Shown here in pieces: positions 27,794 to 35,330 of a stretch of 64,000 nt of DNA. Positions within the stretch are counted from its first letter, which is position 1; each line of letters begins with the position of its first letter. This DNA is from Candidatus Latescibacterota bacterium (GTDB lineage Bacteria > Latescibacterota > UBA2968). The notes beneath the pieces were generated by a model. It saw nothing but the letters and a program-made list of their open reading frames with translations. It made no database searches and was not told where the DNA came from. Where the stretch lies: positions 4,672,001-4,736,000 of the forward strand of contig OZ242320.1 in NCBI GenBank assembly GCA_965208125.1, read 5' to 3'. The translations under genes were made by a program, and so were the position numbers.

Positions 27794-30700
27794 ATGGCTC
27801 ACACGAAGACACAAAGCCACAAAGAAGGGTGGGGGCTGAGGTGGTGTTACGCGCTTGCTGTGGTTATCAGTGGTTTCTTTTTCCAAATGGCGCACGCGCA
27901 ACCCGCGTATTCTCCCGGGCAGATTCTCGTCAAGTTTCGCAACGCAAAGCCAGCACTTGCACAATTCCGCGATCTATCAGAACGCCATGGCGTAACGGCG
28001 ATTGAACCGCTTTTTACGCCGCGAAGTGCCAAGGCCGTTTATCCCCATCCTTTAACGCGTGTGTACCGCGTGCGTCTGTCAAGTGATCCTGTCGCAGCCG
28101 CAGCCGATTACGCATTGCGTCCCGATGTTGTGTATGCACAGCCCAATTATTTGTTTACGCACCAGCAAGTATCCAATGACCCGCGCTATAGCGATCAGCG
28201 TAGCCTTCAGACTCTCGGTTGGGAGCTACTGCAACAAAATCTCGGTCCCATTCGAGAACAGATCGTTGTCGCAATCATTGATTCAGGCGTCGATTATAAC
28301 CACGAAGACTTGCGCGACAATATCTGGCACAATGCAGCAGAAGTGAACGGCGAGGCTGGAGTAGATGACGATGGGAATGGGTATATTGACGATATAAGGG
28401 GCTGGGATTTCACCCATGCGCCCGATCTGCCGGGAATAGGGGATTATCTCAATCGCGATAACGATCCACAAGATGAATCGGCGCACGGTACGCGCGTTGC
28501 CGGCATTGTAGCAGCTACGGTGAATAACAATCGAGGTATTGCCGGTATTGCACCCAATGCACAGCTTATGGCCCTGCGGGCTGGTTTGAGACGGCTTGGC
28601 GGCATTGGCTTTCTCGAAGAAGATGATATTGCAGCAGCCATTCTCTATGCCGTAGAAAATGGCGCGCATGTCATTAATATGAGTTTGGGAGGGCCTGAGC
28701 GCACTTTTATCCTGGGCGATGTAATCCAATACGCGCATGCCCAGGGCGTTGTGCTCGTCGCCTCTGCGGGGAACTCGGGTGATGAGTTGGGTTATCCTGC
28801 AGGCAATCACTATACGATTGCCGTAGGTGCGGTAAACCACTCTGACCGCCTGGCGAGTTTTAGCAGTACGGGCGCGTCGCTCGATCTGGTTGCGCCGGGT
28901 GTCAGTATCCTCAGCACGTACCTGAATAACCGCTATGCTTCAGGCTCTGGCACTTCTTTTTCCGCGCCTCACATATCCGGTCTGGTTGCGCTGATTCTCT
29001 CACGTCGGCCCGATCTTTCGCCCCACTCTGTGCGCAATTTGCTCATCGCATCTGCAATTGACCTGGGTCCACCGGGACACGATAATGATTATGGGGCAGG
29101 GCGCGTGAGTGGCGCGCAACTCGCAGACCGCCTGAATACTTTCGATCCGCTAACAGTTGCGATTCAATCTCCCGCTAATGACGAGGGGGAAGATACCGCG
29201 TTTGATATTCGCGCTTCTGTTTCGGGCGCGCAGGTCACGGATTATCGCCTGTCTTATGGCCTGGGGCGCAATCCACAAACCTGGACACTTCTCGCAGAAG
29301 GTTTGCCCTCTCGGGATATTCACCATACGTGGGATGTTTCTGGGTTTGCAAATTCTGACGCGGTTTTGCGACTCGAGGCAGATTTGTCGGATGGCGTGGT
29401 CGTGGAAGACCGCGTTCGTATCGCTATAGAAAAAACAGCCCCAACTATCACCGCACTCGCGTGTGGCGATGTATTGGAGGACGACCGCCGCGTTTTTGAA
29501 TGTCGCTGGCGAACCGATCAACGCGCACACGGGGGAATTGCCTATCTCTATGGCGCGGATTTTGATACTCTGTACACCGGCCTGGTGCAAAACAAACACC
29601 GCGTTGTTCTGCCCCACACATTGCCTGCAGGTGTTGTGACATTTCACGTTTTGGCTGATGGAGAGAACAATATCCGCGCGGTGCATCCGGCACAGAAAAT
29701 TGATTATGTTCCTTTTCGCGTCCCACGAAATGGCTTTGTGGAAAGGGGCACATTGCCCGATGGTTTTTTGCCCGACCGCGCGTCGGATTTTGACCGTGAT
29801 GGCAGGCTGGAAATCGCGCTTATGCCCTATGTTACGGGCGATTCTTATGGGCCAGTGCATATTTACGAACGTCAGACGGATGGCACATTTATCAATGAAT
29901 TTCAAAGCGATGAGCGTTTTTTGCCCTGGGCAATTGGCGATATTACAAATGATGGGATCGATGATTTATTAGGTGTGACTTATGAGCGTCTTGTGCTTTT
30001 TACAGATAGCTTCTCCAATCCCTATCCCGCGCAGGTGGAATTTGAACATCTCGGCACATGGGGCGGCGATTTTGCCGATGTGGATGGCGATAGCATTCCC
30101 GATATTATCGCTCGTGCAGGCGATCAGCGCGGTATCCGCGTGATTCGCAATCTCGGCAGTGTGATCCGCGAGGAGATATTTCTCGCCGATCCCTCACAGG
30201 GAACTGGCGACCTTGGCCCGCGCTTTGTGGTTGCGGACTTTGATCGGGATGAACAGCAGGAAATTCTCGCTGCCGATGCCGATGGCGATCTCTGGATGTA
30301 CGAATATCGCGCGGGAAGATACGTGCAGACATGGTATTTGCCGGGCGATGGGGACGCGCGCTGGATTGGCGGGGGCATGGATTTGGATGGCGATGGGGTG
30401 GTCGAATTTGCTGTTGCTCGCGCGTACACAGATGCGTATGAGGCTTCCAATGGTTTCTGGGAACTGGAGATTTACAGTATGCGTGCGCCCGATACTTATG
30501 CACGCGAATGGGCGACGCGGATTCACGGGGTGGCGACCACGGGCAATGGGATTTCAGCAGGAGATGTCGATGGGGATGGCCTGGCCGATTTGATAGTATG
30601 CCTGCGTCCCGATCTCTATGCTTTTCGCGCCGAGAAGCCCGATTACTATCGCCCGATCTGGCATACATCGGTGGGTTTGATGCGCCGCGCACTCATTGCT

Positions 30701-31495
30701 GATCTGGACAAAGATTTTCACAATGAGGTGCTTTTTAATTTTGATGGTGCAGTGCATATCGTTGAACGCGATGAACCGCCGACCGCAGTGGGATCACCAC
30801 AGATTATACGCGCGCGGCCTCTGGGACCAACCCGCGTTGAAATCGACTGGATGCAAGTGCCCGATGCGTCTTCTTACCAGATTTATCGCGCTGTCGGCGA
30901 TAGCGCGCTCGATTATTTTGATGAGATTAGCAACCGCACGGTGTATATTGATTCCTTGCTGACCGAAGGACAGACCTATCGCTATCAGATTATCGCTGTG
31001 GCTGATCAGGACCTTCGCTCGGGTATTGTATCTCTCACGCCGAATCGTGCGCCAGAAGTCGTGCGTGTTGAAACTCTCTCAGATAACCAGATTCAAATTT
31101 TCTTTTCGGAAGAGATGGGCTCAGATGCGGCCCTGCCGTCGAGTTATCTGCTCGGCGGTGTTGGACAACCCACATCTGTGATTCTCGATCGGCAAAATAC
31201 TCGAGCTGTTCTGTCCTTTGCCGTGCCGTTTCCGGCCCGCTATACATTGACTGTTATCAATGTTTCCGATGCGAGCGGTACACCACTTGGGCTGATAACT
31301 ATTTCAGATACTATTGATCCAGACCTTCTCGCTCGAGCCGATGCCGATGGCAGTGGTGTTATTGATTTTGCGGATTTCCTATCTTTTGTCCACGCATTTC
31401 AAACTTCTGATTCTACATTTGATTTTGATGGCGACGGTATCGTCAATTTCTCCGATTTTCTCATCTTTGTCAATCTCTTTGGTCGAGTAGTGTGA
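27794..31495 (+). CDS. Secreted S8 subtilisin-like protease with FG-GAP-like repeats, FN3/Ig-like and C-terminal dockerin/EF-hand-like domains
   Basis: Catalytic triad IIDSG / HGTRVAG / SGTSFSAP; repeated DxDGDG motifs; C-terminal DADGSGVIDFADFL..DFDGDGIVNFSDFL. Confidence 0.9.
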   Translation: MAHTKTQSHKEGWGLRWCYALAVVISGFFFQMAHAQPAYSPGQILVKFRNAKPALAQFRDLSERHGVTAIEPLFTPRSAKAVYPHPLTRVYRVRLSSDPVAAAADYALRPDVVYAQPNYLFTHQQVSNDPRYSDQRSLQTLGWELLQQNLGPIREQIVVAIIDSGVDYNHEDLRDNIWHNAAEVNGEAGVDDDGNGYIDDIRGWDFTHAPDLPGIGDYLNRDNDPQDESAHGTRVAGIVAATVNNNRGIAGIAPNAQLMALRAGLRRLGGIGFLEEDDIAAAILYAVENGAHVINMSLGGPERTFILGDVIQYAHAQGVVLVASAGNSGDELGYPAGNHYTIAVGAVNHSDRLASFSSTGASLDLVAPGVSILSTYLNNRYASGSGTSFSAPHISGLVALILSRRPDLSPHSVRNLLIASAIDLGPPGHDNDYGAGRVSGAQLADRLNTFDPLTVAIQSPANDEGEDTAFDIRASVSGAQVTDYRLSYGLGRNPQTWTLLAEGLPSRDIHHTWDVSGFANSDAVLRLEADLSDGVVVEDRVRIAIEKTAPTITALACGDVLEDDRRVFECRWRTDQRAHGGIAYLYGADFDTLYTGLVQNKHRVVLPHTLPAGVVTFHVLADGENNIRAVHPAQKIDYVPFRVPRNGFVERGTLPDGFLPDRASDFDRDGRLEIALMPYVTGDSYGPVHIYERQTDGTFINEFQSDERFLPWAIGDITNDGIDDLLGVTYERLVLFTDSFSNPYPAQVEFEHLGTWGGDFADVDGDSIPDIIARAGDQRGIRVIRNLGSVIREEIFLADPSQGTGDLGPRFVVADFDRDEQQEILAADADGDLWMYEYRAGRYVQTWYLPGDGDARWIGGGMDLDGDGVVEFAVARAYTDAYEASNGFWELEIYSMRAPDTYAREWATRIHGVATTGNGISAGDVDGDGLADLIVCLRPDLYAFRAEKPDYYRPIWHTSVGLMRRALIADLDKDFHNEVLFNFDGAVHIVERDEPPTAVGSPQIIRARPLGPTRVEIDWMQVPDASSYQIYRAVGDSALDYFDEISNRTVYIDSLLTEGQTYRYQIIAVADQDLRSGIVSLTPNRAPEVVRVETLSDNQIQIFFSEEMGSDAALPSSYLLGGVGQPTSVILDRQNTRAVLSFAVPFPARYTLTVINVSDASGTPLGLITISDTIDPDLLARADADGSGVIDFADFLSFVHAFQTSDSTFDFDGDGIVNFSDFLIFVNLFGRVV

Positions 31496-31515: not shown

Positions 31516-32166
31516 GTGATCGTGAATATTGGTATTCCCAAACGCGCGTTTTTTCAGGTGGCTTTTCCCTGTGTGTTTCGCGCAGATGCCCCGGTGATTG
31601 ATGGCGTCCTCAATGACTGGAAGGCGACTCATCTGGTGCCTGATTTGACCGGGATTGAAGGGAAAAATCCCTTTGCCGATGTGTATATGGCCTGGCACGA
31701 TACCGGGTTGTTTTTTGCCGTTGATGTGAAAGGTAGCGGCGGACGTGCGCCAGATGTTCGCAGTCCATTGCGCGGTGACGGCTTTCAGGTGTGGATTGAT
31801 ACGCGCGATGTGCGTAATGCACCTCGGGGAAGCCGCTATTGTCACCATTTTTGTTTTTGGCCGGGCAAGGGAAAGGCGCGAGCCGGGGGAAGACAGTTCC
31901 GTCTGCGACGGGCGAGAGCGCATCCCAGGTTGTGCGATCCCGAGCGTCTAAAGGTGGCTTCAAAGGAGCACAAAACGGGATATCACCTGGAAGCCCATAT
32001 TCCCGCTGCTGCAATGACCGGGTTTGATCCCGATGAGAATAATCGGATCGGTTTTACTTATTTGTTGCGCGATAAGAATTTAGGGCGACAAGTTTGGACA
32101 GCAGAGGAGATTTTGCCCGTGTCTTATGATCCGAGTTTGTGGGGTACAGCAGAATTGGTGAGGTAA
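31516..32166 (+). CDS. CBM9/DOMON-like domain protein without a signal peptide
   Basis: PVIDGVLNDW, GD.FQVWIDT, YHLEAHIP, DPSLWG. Confidence 0.6.
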   Translation: MIVNIGIPKRAFFQVAFPCVFRADAPVIDGVLNDWKATHLVPDLTGIEGKNPFADVYMAWHDTGLFFAVDVKGSGGRAPDVRSPLRGDGFQVWIDTRDVRNAPRGSRYCHHFCFWPGKGKARAGGRQFRLRRARAHPRLCDPERLKVASKEHKTGYHLEAHIPAAAMTGFDPDENNRIGFTYLLRDKNLGRQVWTAEEILPVSYDPSLWGTAELVR

Positions 32167-32263
32167 GTGTTAAAAGGCGAGAAGCGGGTTTGTATTTCGT
32201 CAAATAGTTTTGTATATTGGAAACATTGAATAGGACAATGGATTTGTATTCGAGGTTGGTAGC

Positions 32264-33271
32264 ATGACACAAGATAGCGAACTTTCCCAAGACCTCACCG
32301 CTCGCGTGGAGCGTTTGGAGTCGCTGTTGGCAATTAGTCGATTGATGAATGCGACGTCAAACCAGGGGCGGTTGATCAGTGGTATTGCGCATGAAATATC
32401 CACGTATTTGGAGGCGGAACAGTGTTCGATTTTTTTTCACAACCGCCTGACAGATGAGCTTTATACGCACGTTGGGGCAGGGGGCGAAAAAGACACGCAG
32501 GTGCGAATCCCGAGCAATAGGGGTATCGCGGGGCATGTGTTTAATAGCGGCGATGTGAGAAATGTTTTGGATACCTCCAAAGACCCTTTATTTTCCAATG
32601 AGCTTGGGTATGAAACGCATACTATGCTGGCTTTTCCGCTGCACAACAGACGCGGAGAGGTGATAGGCGTGCTGGAACTCCTGAACAAGAAAGACGATCC
32701 GGGCTATTTTACAAAAGATGATGAGGGTTTTCTGCACGAGGTGGCCGCGCAAATCGGTGGGTTAGTCGATATGATGCTGAGGCGAGAAGAGATGGCCCAC
32801 CGCAATGAGTTGCTCGAAGCGCAGATGGAGCGTTTGTCGGGATTTGAGCACCTGGTGGAGGACCGCACGGTTATCAATACTGTGTTTAAGTACAATCGCA
32901 AGATACACTATTGGGCTGGGTTGGTCGGCATGATTTTGTTGGCAGTGATGTCTATTACCTCTCTGGTGATGGTGCGATCTGCTGATTTCCGGAAAATCAT
33001 GCTGGAGTTGCATTCGGGGGTTATTTTTGCGGGTGCTAGCAACGCGTATATTTATACCGATATCGTTGCCTATATTACGTTGACGATTTGTCTTTCTGGT
33101 TTTCTGATGTATGCCTATCCACCGTTGAATCGCTGGATGAGGGCTAAAAAGGATCGGCTTTCGCGGTTTATGATTCAGGCGGGGGTGCGTCAGCACAATC
33201 AAAATCGGCGGGTTCAAGAGGGATTGCGAAAAGTGTTGGGGGGCGGAGATAAACCCTCTGGAAAAACTTGA
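32264..33271 (+). CDS. GAF domain protein with C-terminal PepSY-TM-like membrane helices
   Basis: GIAGHV, DP.F, GEVIGVLELLNK...F...DE (GAF); RKIHYWAGL, LELHSG and CLSGFLMY (PepSY-associated TM-like). Confidence 0.75.
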   Translation: MTQDSELSQDLTARVERLESLLAISRLMNATSNQGRLISGIAHEISTYLEAEQCSIFFHNRLTDELYTHVGAGGEKDTQVRIPSNRGIAGHVFNSGDVRNVLDTSKDPLFSNELGYETHTMLAFPLHNRRGEVIGVLELLNKKDDPGYFTKDDEGFLHEVAAQIGGLVDMMLRREEMAHRNELLEAQMERLSGFEHLVEDRTVINTVFKYNRKIHYWAGLVGMILLAVMSITSLVMVRSADFRKIMLELHSGVIFAGASNAYIYTDIVAYITLTICLSGFLMYAYPPLNRWMRAKKDRLSRFMIQAGVRQHNQNRRVQEGLRKVLGGGDKPSGKT

Positions 33272-33339
33272 TTTTGTGTTCGGAAAAGTTTATTATCATG
33301 GCTCGCAATGTAAAACGAGAAAGGAAATAGGAGGAATCA

Positions 33340-33792
33340 ATGCGCTATTTGAGGTTTATGGCTTTGGGTTCGGTAATTCTGGGCGTTGTGATGGCAGGTA
33401 TCGCTGGCTGTGGTGGGGGACAAGAACAGGCGGATAATAAGCTGCCTGTGAGACGTGCGAAAATGCGCGAGATTAAATTGAGCACAGACCGGATTATGGT
33501 CGCGCTGAAAAACGAGACGGTTGAGGGGGTTGCCGATGATGCCGAGAAAATTCAGGATGCGTTGAAAGCGGTGATCGATCTCTATCCGACAGAACACGAA
33601 GAGAGATACACGACTTACAACCAGGCATCTCAAACACTGGCTTTGGGGATTGCGTCGGCCGCCAAGGCGGGAAATGTCAAAGAGGCGAATAAGAAGTTCC
33701 GCGCCATGGTACCTTATTGCGGTAAATGTCACGAAGATTGTGCCTTTATGCTGGCTCCTGCATTTCCCGAGTATGAAGACGTAAGCGAATAA
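33340..33792 (+). CDS. Lipoprotein class II (four-helix) cytochrome c
   Basis: Lipobox IAGC; predicted helical body; single CGKCH heme motif near the C-terminus. Confidence 0.75.
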   Translation: MRYLRFMALGSVILGVVMAGIAGCGGGQEQADNKLPVRRAKMREIKLSTDRIMVALKNETVEGVADDAEKIQDALKAVIDLYPTEHEERYTTYNQASQTLALGIASAAKAGNVKEANKKFRAMVPYCGKCHEDCAFMLAPAFPEYEDVSE

Positions 33793-33804
33793 AAATTAAG
33801 AATG

Positions 33805-33843
33805 AAAAAAAGCGTCAGCTCAAGTAGCTGACGCTTTTTTTTT
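33805..33843. terminator. Bidirectional Rho-independent terminator
   Basis: A7-GCGTCAGCT-caagt-AGCTGACGC-T9 between convergent genes. Confidence 0.9.
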
Positions 33844-33854
33844 GGATTTTGTGA

Positions 33855-34613
33855 TTAGAACCGCCAGATTTTCAGAGCGGTTTTTCCGAATATCCATTCT
33901 CTGTCTTCTTCACTGAGGGTAGATAGATAATCCATCGGGACTTTGAGGCTGTTGTCATAGCCTTCGCGTCGGCTCACAGGGGGATAATCGCTTCCCCACA
34001 TGACCCTTTGGGGACCGAAGGCTTCGATGGCCATGTCGGCGAGTGGAGGAATGGGATCAAAAGGCAAGGGAACGGGACAGATTTCGCCGAATCCGGGAAG
34101 TTTGATAGACAGATTGGAGTGTTCGGCGAGTTCGAGGATTTTTTTAAAGGTATCATAAGGGGGCTGTTGGCCCTCGCCGATGCCCGCGAGGTGTTCGATC
34201 ACAATGGACAGATTTGGAAATTCTCTGATTACTTCTGCAAATTCATCGCTCAGAAGGCTCTGGGGATTGCTCGGCGCACTGACGACGAGGTCGAGTTCGG
34301 CTGCTGTACGCCACTGCGCGAGGGGATCGGCGCAATCGGCGCGGCTATTTGCAGGGAGGCGGATGCCCACAATGCCCTGTTCTGCCCATTGTCGCATGGC
34401 TGTGCCATCGTCTGTTGGTTCAACGATCATGGCCGCTTGAAATTTTCCCGGATGTGCCGCCATGCTGTCGAGCATATACTGGTTGTTCGAGTTTCCCGCG
34501 TACTGGATGAAGACGGCGTGATTGACACCGGATGTGTTCATGTGGTAGAGCAGGGATTCTACTGGTTCGTATTTGTGAAGTCCAATATGGCAGTGCGTAT
34601 CGACAATGATCAT
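33855..34613 (-). CDS. Amidohydrolase_2 family protein
   Basis: DTHCH, IEHLA, AFGPQRVMWGSDYP, FGKTA. Confidence 0.9.
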   Translation of the reverse strand: MIIVDTHCHIGLHKYEPVESLLYHMNTSGVNHAVFIQYAGNSNNQYMLDSMAAHPGKFQAAMIVEPTDDGTAMRQWAEQGIVGIRLPANSRADCADPLAQWRTAAELDLVVSAPSNPQSLLSDEFAEVIREFPNLSIVIEHLAGIGEGQQPPYDTFKKILELAEHSNLSIKLPGFGEICPVPLPFDPIPPLADMAIEAFGPQRVMWGSDYPPVSRREGYDNSLKVPMDYLSTLSEEDREWIFGKTALKIWRF

Positions 34614-34640
34614 TGTGTTTTTGCTCCAGAAGGGATGGGG

Positions 34641-35330
34641 TCAAAACAATGCGCCCTGTTCGGGCGGTTGTGTGGGTTTCAGGCAGTCTGGCGTGTCATT
34701 TATCGGGTTATTGACAAGGGTAGAAACGGGGTGTGCGGTCATCTCCTGGGGGGAATAGGGGATGAGGAAGTCCTGGAGGTCTGTTCGCTCTGTTGGATCG
34801 AGCCAGTGGTCATATACATCAGCCGGTAGAATAACGGGCATGCGATTGTGAATCGGTGCCATCAGGGCGTTGGGTTCGGTTGTGATAATGGTGCAGGATT
34901 GGATGTGTTGTCCTTCGGGTGAATGCCAGGATTCCCAAAGGCCAGCAAAAGCAAAGGGAGCACCGGATTTGAGCGCAATGTGCATAGGGGTTTTGGTTCT
35001 GCCGTCGGGATTGCGTTGCCATTCGTAAAATCCCGTTGAGGGGATCAGACATCTCCGTCTTTTGAAGGCCGCGCGAAATGAGGGTTTTTCCGCAAGGGTT
35101 TCTTTCCGTGCATTGATGAGTCGGTTGCCAATTTTGTGATCTTTTGCCCACGATGGAATAAGTCCCCACTTAAAGGTGTCTGCCCGCGGCTCAGCAGTGT
35201 TGGCAATCGCCGTGATATTCTGGCCCGGCGCGATATTGTATTGCAATGGCATCTCGTTGGGAAAAACAACCTGTGGAAATGCGAGTTGGTTTTCATCGGG
35301 TTGGGCAGCATAAACAAATCGACCGCACAT
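34641..35330 (-). CDS. SRAP/HMCES abasic-site processing protein (YedK-like)
   Basis: MCGRF N-terminus, YNIAP, WGLIPSW, INARKET, GFYEW, IHNRMPVIL. Confidence 0.95.
   Translation of the reverse strand: MCGRFVYAAQPDENQLAFPQVVFPNEMPLQYNIAPGQNITAIANTAEPRADTFKWGLIPSWAKDHKIGNRLINARKETLAEKPSFRAAFKRRRCLIPSTGFYEWQRNPDGRTKTPMHIALKSGAPFAFAGLWESWHSPEGQHIQSCTIITTEPNALMAPIHNRMPVILPADVYDHWLDPTERTDLQDFLIPYSPQEMTAHPVSTLVNNPINDTPDCLKPTQPPEQGALF

Follow-up and report, generated by a model that had tools for sequence, protein, structure and literature searches.

The DNA analysed here, called the window, is a 64,000-nucleotide (nt) stretch of contig OZ242320.1 (GCA_965208125.1) from a Candidatus Latescibacterota bacterium. 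Near its middle lie two genes on the plus strand, gene 1 and gene 2, which may form a single operon for a small membrane redox module. Gene 1 joins a GAF domain through a long helix to a membrane module of two transmembrane (TM) helices, and gene 2 encodes a lipoprotein cytochrome c (Table 1). The locus had been described in a first-pass annotation made from the sequence letters. The open reading frames (ORFs), their strand, the gap between them and the terminator beyond gene 2 all lie where that annotation placed them, and every string quoted in it can be found in the sequence: LNKKDDPGYFTKDDE, RKIHYWAGL, LELHSG, LSGFLMY, KMREI and CGKCH.

Table 1. Features of the gene 1-gene 2 locus. Coordinates are positions in the window, except in the last row, where each pair follows the handle of its locus; aa, amino acids.
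Feature	Coordinates	Strand	Description
gene 1	32264-33271	+	335 aa ORF: GAF, long helix, two-helix His-bearing membrane module
GAF domain	32375-32758	+	residues 38-165; Pfam PF01590, PF13185, PF13492
NK...F...DE motif	32684-32725	+	N141 K142 ... F149 ... D153 E154
linker helix	32714-32857	+	residues 151-198; single break at 199, then TM1
half-PepSY_TM-like membrane module	32849-33163	+	residues 196-300: TM1, short periplasmic stretch, TM2
H215 codon	32906-32908	+	RKIHYW, predicted cytoplasmic end of TM1
H250 codon	33011-33013	+	MLELHSG, predicted periplasmic side ahead of TM2
intergenic gap	33272-33339	+	68 nt; ribosome-binding site AGGAGG at 33329-33334
gene 2	33340-33792	+	150 aa ORF: lipoprotein class II (four-helix) cytochrome c
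lipobox cysteine C24 (IAGC)	33409-33411	+	invariant 12/12
M42 codon (AKMREIK)	33463-33465	+	seven residues into helix 1; invariant 12/12; candidate sixth haem ligand
CGKCH haem c attachment site	33718-33732	+	C127-H131; C127, C130, H131 invariant 12/12
intrinsic terminator	33804-33842	+	17-pair stem, 5-nt loop, T-run; 3' of gene 2
distant-clade cytochrome loci	L030 2112-2522, L031 1938-2405, L032 4242-4652, L034 3337-3783, L035 1638-2201		

Relatives of gene 1 are readily told apart from other GAF proteins. In a word-indexed search 43 protein clusters were recovered at E <= 1e-60, of which 40 align over 87% or more of the query, with identities of 49-98%; past this family the scores fall sharply to GAF-only matches (E 1e-20 and worse) with kinase, phosphatase or HD outputs. 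An exhaustive HMMER search with gene 1 drew 8460 GAF-containing proteins, and among the best 150 of these only two matched over the full length, P0057 (53% identity) and P0061 (36%). Gene 1 loci number 28 in species-representative genomes, all but three of them labelled Latescibacterota or Latescibacteria. The membrane module is present in 35 of the 168 Latescibacterota genomes surveyed. Two related families account for 30 of these, and the other five, with weaker scores, belong to a distant family. Because the family recurs across genomes of the phylum, gene 1 is not a strain-specific chimera, a danger that the first-pass annotation had raised against its own proposal. That annotation had also described gene 1 as lacking a kinase, cyclase or phosphodiesterase output, and none of these domains is found in it by Pfam; NCBIfam adds nothing specific. 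Among proteins of similar length the membrane module is found only behind a GAF domain. None was found in longer proteins, which is weak evidence, and shorter proteins were not searched.

The AlphaFold2 (AF2) model of gene 1 (mean predicted local distance difference test score, pLDDT, 75.6) has an N-terminal helix and a GAF fold, then helices at residues 151-198 and 200-238 (TM1), short helices at 243-256 and a second long helix that starts at residue 263 and includes TM2. About 23 periplasmic residues separate the two TM helices. Gene 1 has no signal peptide, and its N-terminal 200 residues, the GAF domain included, should therefore be cytoplasmic, so that TM1 would run outward and TM2 back in. 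This order would place H215 at the cytoplasmic face of the membrane and H250 at the periplasmic face. The histidines, to which a role in haem binding had been assigned at the outset, are conserved: R212, H215, W217, H250, G252, D266, G279, Y285, P286 and W291 are invariant in all 14 sequences of an alignment that covers both clades at 34-78% identity. E176, L191, L197 and T202 are the invariant positions of the linker.

The nearest Pfam family to the membrane module is PepSY_TM (PF03929), for which whole gene 1 scores 21.1 bits, the module alone 24.9 bits (E 2.2e-5, in two stretches) and P0061 24.6 bits. These two stretches are a TM1 piece, which aligns to profile positions 2-25, and a TM2 piece, which aligns to 116-157; their counterparts in other members fall on the second profile repeat, at 175-203 and 252-293. 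Matches to either repeat are as expected for half of an internally duplicated PepSY_TM unit. In true PepSY_TM proteins, the IHTGYFF motif is the counterpart of the stretch around H250. When the module (both clades) was compared by hhalign with six two-helix PepSY_TM proteins of the phylum, a probability of 88.3% (E 2.9e-6) was obtained over 43 columns, corresponding to the LHxG-TM2 stretch, and comparison with one such protein of the window's genome, at locus L029, gave E 1.9e-4. Weak secondary matches of the module are to the haem-b membrane families Ferric_reduct, Ni_hydr_CYTB and STEAP1. The module is here called PepSY_TM-like, with homology in its TM2 half, and is not filed as a member of PepSY_TM because it scores below the Pfam cut-off. 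The earlier description of a minimal PepSY-TM-like module stands to this extent, as a half-size unit outside the formal bounds of the family.

The comparison with characterised PepSY_TM proteins gives the module a possible function. In FoxB, four TM helices, all of them contributing, hold two b-haems at the edges of the bilayer, and each b-haem is held by two conserved His (10.1101/2021.01.28.428567). Characterised members of the family all have large periplasmic domains and four TM helices or more; their His residues are required for function and their electron donor is unknown (PMC13038864). FoxB, FpvG and CrpH (PF03929) are periplasmic metal or siderophore reductases, and like them gene 1 has an HxW that opens a TM helix and an LHxG that precedes the next. 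Both FoxB and gene 1 have His at both membrane faces, and the haems of FoxB carry electrons outward. Gene 1 differs from the three reductases in having two TM helices rather than at least four and no periplasmic PepSY or other domain. It is further unlike them in its cytoplasmic GAF domain, in falling below the Pfam cut-off, and in its partner, a cytochrome c where theirs is a bound metal chelate.

Smaller PepSY_TM proteins bridge part of this difference. Half-size members are common in Latescibacterota, and the window's genome contains one true PepSY_TM protein (L029 1477-2445, 322 aa), with a periplasmic domain flanked by its only two TM helices. Like gene 1, these half-size proteins carry one HxY/W-TM and one IHTG-TM unit per chain, and with one two-helix unit per chain a four-helix bundle would presumably require dimerisation. 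Their RKxH and LHxG...D...SG motifs line up with those of gene 1. Unlike gene 1, they have a periplasmic domain of about 150 residues and no cytoplasmic domain, and they pass the Pfam cut-off. In place of a PepSY domain, the periplasmic insert of the L029 protein carries, as judged by eye, SxDxGxTW-like repeats, and proteins like it are found throughout the phylum.

Each protomer of gene 1 would correspond to one half (HxW-TM, then LHxG-TM) of the duplicated PepSY_TM unit. With one His per face and two helices, the FoxB arrangement can be reached only as a dimer, in which the same His from both chains would serve each haem. GAF proteins commonly form parallel dimers via flanking helices. A parallel GAF dimer would bring the two TM1 helices together, and two protomers held parallel by their GAF domains and linker helices could rebuild the FoxB four-helix bundle, which would carry two bis-His b-haems, one per membrane face. 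Through the nearly unbroken helix into TM1, the GAF domain may tune the cytoplasmic haem, in geometry or in redox behaviour, on a signal from a small ligand, and its ligand response could thereby control electron flow. A gene 1 homodimer that acts as a FoxB-like, four-helix wire with two b-haems, exchanging electrons with the cytochrome c under GAF control, is proposed here tentatively, with doubt slightly outweighing belief.

Several results weigh against this proposal. No cytoplasmic electron donor is evident. The PepSY_TM cut-off of 28.8 bits is missed by 18 of 18 members, all of which match weakly. A profile search of PDB sequences with the module gave nothing significant (best E 0.23-0.36, FoxB not listed), and GAF matches crowded the results of two fold searches with the whole gene 1 model, leaving the membrane part unrepresented. 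The proposed arrangement resembles that of STEAP, NOX and MsrQ-type reductases, in which a cytoplasmic domain is fused to, or binds, a bis-His haem membrane bundle that passes electrons outward. The cytoplasmic part of those proteins is an electron-donating flavin or NAD(P)H reductase, whereas that of gene 1 is a GAF domain in which no redox cofactor site is seen.

The sub-threshold PepSY_TM scores, the PDB sequences that give no match to a haem protein and an Atlas search with residues 196-300 that returned no usable match would suit a gene 1 that holds no haem. Its His residues would then bind a metal ion or be structural, and the protein would be a membrane-anchored GAF receptor or scaffold that could, for example, help, tether or regulate the lipoprotein cytochrome c. 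This is judged unlikely, since in alignments with true PepSY_TM proteins RKxHxW at the start of TM1 and LHxG ahead of TM2 coincide with the haem-ligand motifs, the two His residues fall at opposite membrane faces as in FoxB, and the secondary matches, weak as they are, lead to haem-b families.

Additional information about the proposed wire can be garnered from gene 2. The Pfam family Cytochrom_C_2 (PF01322) reaches 26.3 bits in the window's gene 2, against a cut-off of 26.5, and matches all 12 orthologues at E <= 0.01, at best 2.2e-7; the gene 2 alignment comprises 12 sequences with 51-90% identity to the window protein. In the AF2 model (pLDDT 72.9) four helices occupy residues 35-57, 64-79, 84-109 and 113-137. 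The best Foldseek matches are cytochromes c', with template-modelling scores of 0.6-0.7 at an E of just about 0.02, and the Kuenenia cytochromes Kusta0087/0088 also appear; in sequence, the best PDB match is to these same Kuenenia proteins (6r6m, 1.9e-4). The lipobox cysteine, the haem attachment site and the four modelled helices agree with the first-pass annotation, which had read gene 2 as a lipoprotein with a C-terminal CxxCH on a four-helix body. Cytochrome c maturation genes are present in the window's genome.

Like class II cytochromes c (c', c556) and Kusta0087/0088, gene 2 combines a four-helix bundle with a CxxCH near the C-terminus. It is unlike them in being a lipoprotein, in the invariant Met of helix 1, in a third invariant Cys (CxxCHxxC) and in a LAPAFPE tail. 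With its invariant M42, gene 2 may be an electron carrier with six-coordinate haem, of the c556 or b562 type. Directly after CGKCH, E132, D133 and C134 are invariant in all 12 sequences. The third Cys, three residues past the haem His (CGKCHEDC), and the LAPAFPE tail together lie in 33718-33780 and are invariant in the 12 orthologues; neither is a feature of cytochromes c' known to us.

The co-occurrence of the two genes, on which the idea of a two-gene module had been built, extends throughout the near relatives. Gene 2 lies downstream of gene 1 on the same strand in all 27 loci that reach that far (28 loci in all, one of which ends inside gene 1 and one of which is partly masked), with a gap of 66-135 nt in relatives. 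Gene 2 was detected in 31 of the 168 phylum genomes and gene 1 in 30 of those 31, counts that overstate independence, the compared genomes being relatives. In the exception, G069, the contig breaks off 186 nt from gene 2, in the direction in which gene 1 would be expected. The pair is kept in distant loci from which the upstream CBM9-like gene has been lost and where inserts of varied length part gene 2 from the next gene.

The adjacency might have no meaning and be no more than the inherited gene order of close relatives. Most of the loci come from one family of one phylum and are not independent, and synteny in close relatives extends to the flanking CBM9-like and amidohydrolase genes. This explanation is very improbable: the pair persists despite the upstream gene loss and the inserts downstream of gene 2, presence and absence of the two genes agree in 30 of the 31 genomes with gene 2, the exception lying at a contig end, and an unrelated cytochrome c lipoprotein adjoins the orthologue of gene 1 in the distant clade.

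In the five genomes of the distant family the GAF-membrane gene is present and gene 2 is absent. In 5 of 5 of these loci a different mono-haem CxxCH lipoprotein lies directly upstream on the same strand. These proteins are 136-157 aa long, with lipoboxes and with the CxxCH near the N-terminus, and their alignment to gene 2 by hhalign has a probability of 7.8% and is limited to the signal peptide. The replacement of gene 2 by a non-homologous cytochrome c is the strongest evidence for a functional partnership between the GAF-membrane protein and a cytochrome c. The distant-clade lipoprotein family itself is unannotated, with a conserved FDDIALYN motif and weak Pfam hints of Haem_bd and PSCyt1.

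Transcriptomic data bear on the operon. Sponge metatranscriptome contigs match the locus at 90-99% identity in 4 of 4 RNA-library runs (3 studies), in which uncovered parts of the stretch carry no meaning. The gap between the genes is bridged by two RNA-library contigs from two studies, with more than 31 nt on both sides. One of these covers 32913-33604; the second, of 1614 nt, corresponds to just 32188-33789, that is, to both genes and little else. Shorter contigs from the other two runs extend merely 25-28 nt into gene 2, and one RNA-library contig joins the upstream CBM9-like gene to gene 1. The bridging contigs weakly support co-transcription of genes 1 and 2. Set against the operon is that such contigs are no proof of a single transcript and that RNA libraries may hold DNA.

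The periplasmic metal-chelate cavity of PepSY proteins is missing from gene 1, and the lipoprotein cytochrome c may take the role of electron partner in its stead. The same parts and the same conserved pairing could also be read in the opposite direction, as an outside-in redox sensor. Here the periplasmic redox state, or a gas, would be signalled by the cytochrome c to the membrane haems and from there down the helix to the GAF domain, which would be the output, binding or releasing a cytoplasmic partner or ligand. Gene 1 has no enzymatic output domain, no obvious electron donor stands beside the cytoplasmic haem site, and the fold of gene 2 is that of the gas-binding cytochromes c', all of which suit a sensor. 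GAF domains are known as input domains, however, and the locus has no conserved third gene, as distant loci have lost the CBM9-like gene and the neighbours downstream lie at varying distances. M42 likewise suggests a six-coordinate carrier over an open gas pocket, and the distant-clade cytochrome has another fold, so that a c'-type gas pocket is not conserved. A sensor of this kind is considered improbable.

Pfam GAF (PF01590) matches gene 1 with E 4.7e-17 and 63.2 bits, against a cut-off of 22.4, and all 18 members tested pass. The domain had first been described as one that binds cyclic nucleotide monophosphates (cNMPs), on the strength of its NK...F...DE motif, in which N141, K142, F149 and D153 are invariant in 14 of 14 sequences from both clades. 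An NKFDE-type motif is necessary for cNMP-binding GAFs and makes no contact with the ligand. The best PDB sequence matches of the domain are CyaB2 (1.4e-21) and PDE2A GAF-B (3.2e-21), and the ranking continues with PDE5, PDE6, PDE10 and Lcd1 (1.4e-21 to 1e-11); all of these best solved relatives are binders of cAMP or cGMP. GAFs of other roles match far worse by sequence, as does that of PtsP (6e-5). Foldseek, run with the whole gene 1 model, returned GAFs of an HD-GYP protein, PDE2A, CyaB2, PDE10A, PDE5 and Lcd1 at E 1e-13 to 1e-11. The pocket type is thus cNMP-like by descent, being closest in sequence to that class. The NK...F...DE motif, and the long helix that leads from the GAF to the regulated part, are shared with cNMP-regulated tandem-GAF proteins (PDE2A, PDE5/6/10 and the cyanobacterial cyclases CyaB1 and CyaB2); gene 1 is unlike these in having a single GAF and, as its regulated part, a membrane module rather than a cyclase or phosphodiesterase.

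Some sources name the protein a free methionine sulfoxide reductase. This reading was rejected, as the distant clade has F in place of C54 and the matches by sequence point to cNMP-type GAFs.

A number of findings tell against a cNMP as the ligand. E154 of the motif is replaced by V in five distant-clade sequences. By fold alone the scores are tied, with Z 21.4 for the HD-GYP GAF, 20.9 for PtsP, 19.6-19.7 for PDE2A and 19.4 for Nlh2. The module is present in 21 of 21 genomes of the window's genus, and a class III cyclase in three of these and in none of the other 18. A CYTH cyclase is present in 0 of the 5 near-complete, cyclase-less genomes of the genus that were checked for one; other cyclase classes were not searched. 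These five carry 5-11 cNMP_binding domains. One class III cyclase and five cNMP_binding domains were counted in the window's own genome, and in other genera a class III cyclase is present in all 14 module-bearing genomes. The case for a cNMP as the GAF ligand is weak, above all in the window's genus. Of the original claim of a cNMP-type GAF, the kinship in sequence survives and the ligand is left in doubt. The genus is sponge-associated and mostly without a cyclase of its own, and on a bolder reading the ligand could come from outside the cell.

The window's genus also differs from the others within the GAF domain itself. It has a four-residue loop deletion before GYET (SNE----LGYETHT; about 32590-32620, residues about 110-118), where all other genera read xxxxKTGYxT, and it is the same genus that mostly lacks a class III cyclase.

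In the boldest form of the proposal, a GAF of the second-messenger type would itself act as the switch of a two-haem-b conduit, formed by a homodimer and delivering electrons to a dedicated periplasmic cytochrome c. Such a ligand-gated wire is doubtful on present evidence. If true, it would be the first allosteric small-molecule control built into a PepSY_TM-type electron path.

All of the parts described above are of known kinds, and it is their combination that is, to our knowledge, undescribed. Full-text searches, whose coverage mostly leaves out subscription journals, found no paper with both GAF and PepSY terms. What appears to be new, as read from sequence, is a sensor domain on a half-size, haem-wire-type module that has no periplasmic domain and is locked to a cytochrome c. 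For PepSY_TM-type haem wires both the cytoplasmic donor and the regulation are unknown, and gene 1 may represent such a wire stripped to its two-helix core and fitted with a sensor domain. The mechanics of GAF domains are well understood, and gene order here names the periplasmic partner. At about 335 + 125 residues, the pair would make a small, testable system for the switching of transmembrane electron flow by a ligand and for half-size PepSY_TM proteins as dimers. A membrane haem module would also be added to the outputs that GAF domains may regulate.

In two genomes of the window's genus, gene 1 is preceded on its own strand, at a distance of about 3.5-5 kb, by a full-length PepSY_TM gene of about 190 bits (G085 C1:3708432-3709475 and G082 C1:1349848-1350891). 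The proximity may be coincidence, and the window's genome has no such gene at E <= 0.001.

Genes on both sides of the pair were also examined. A CBM9-like protein (Pfam 8.5e-11) is encoded at 31516-32166, directly upstream of gene 1. This gene has the same position in 18 of the 28 loci, all of which have at least 82% identity to gene 1. Loci at 51-56% identity have no adjoining CBM9-like gene, and one of them, L018, has a copy about 3.7 kb upstream. On the minus strand, Amidohydro_2 and SOS-response-associated peptidase (SRAP) genes (33855-35330) converge on the terminator of gene 2; both are syntenic in relatives, with inserts of variable length between them and gene 2. Further upstream, at 27794-31495, a 1233-aa ORF has, by eye, a subtilase-like N-terminal part, repeated DxDxDG stretches and a dockerin-like C-terminal repeat pair.

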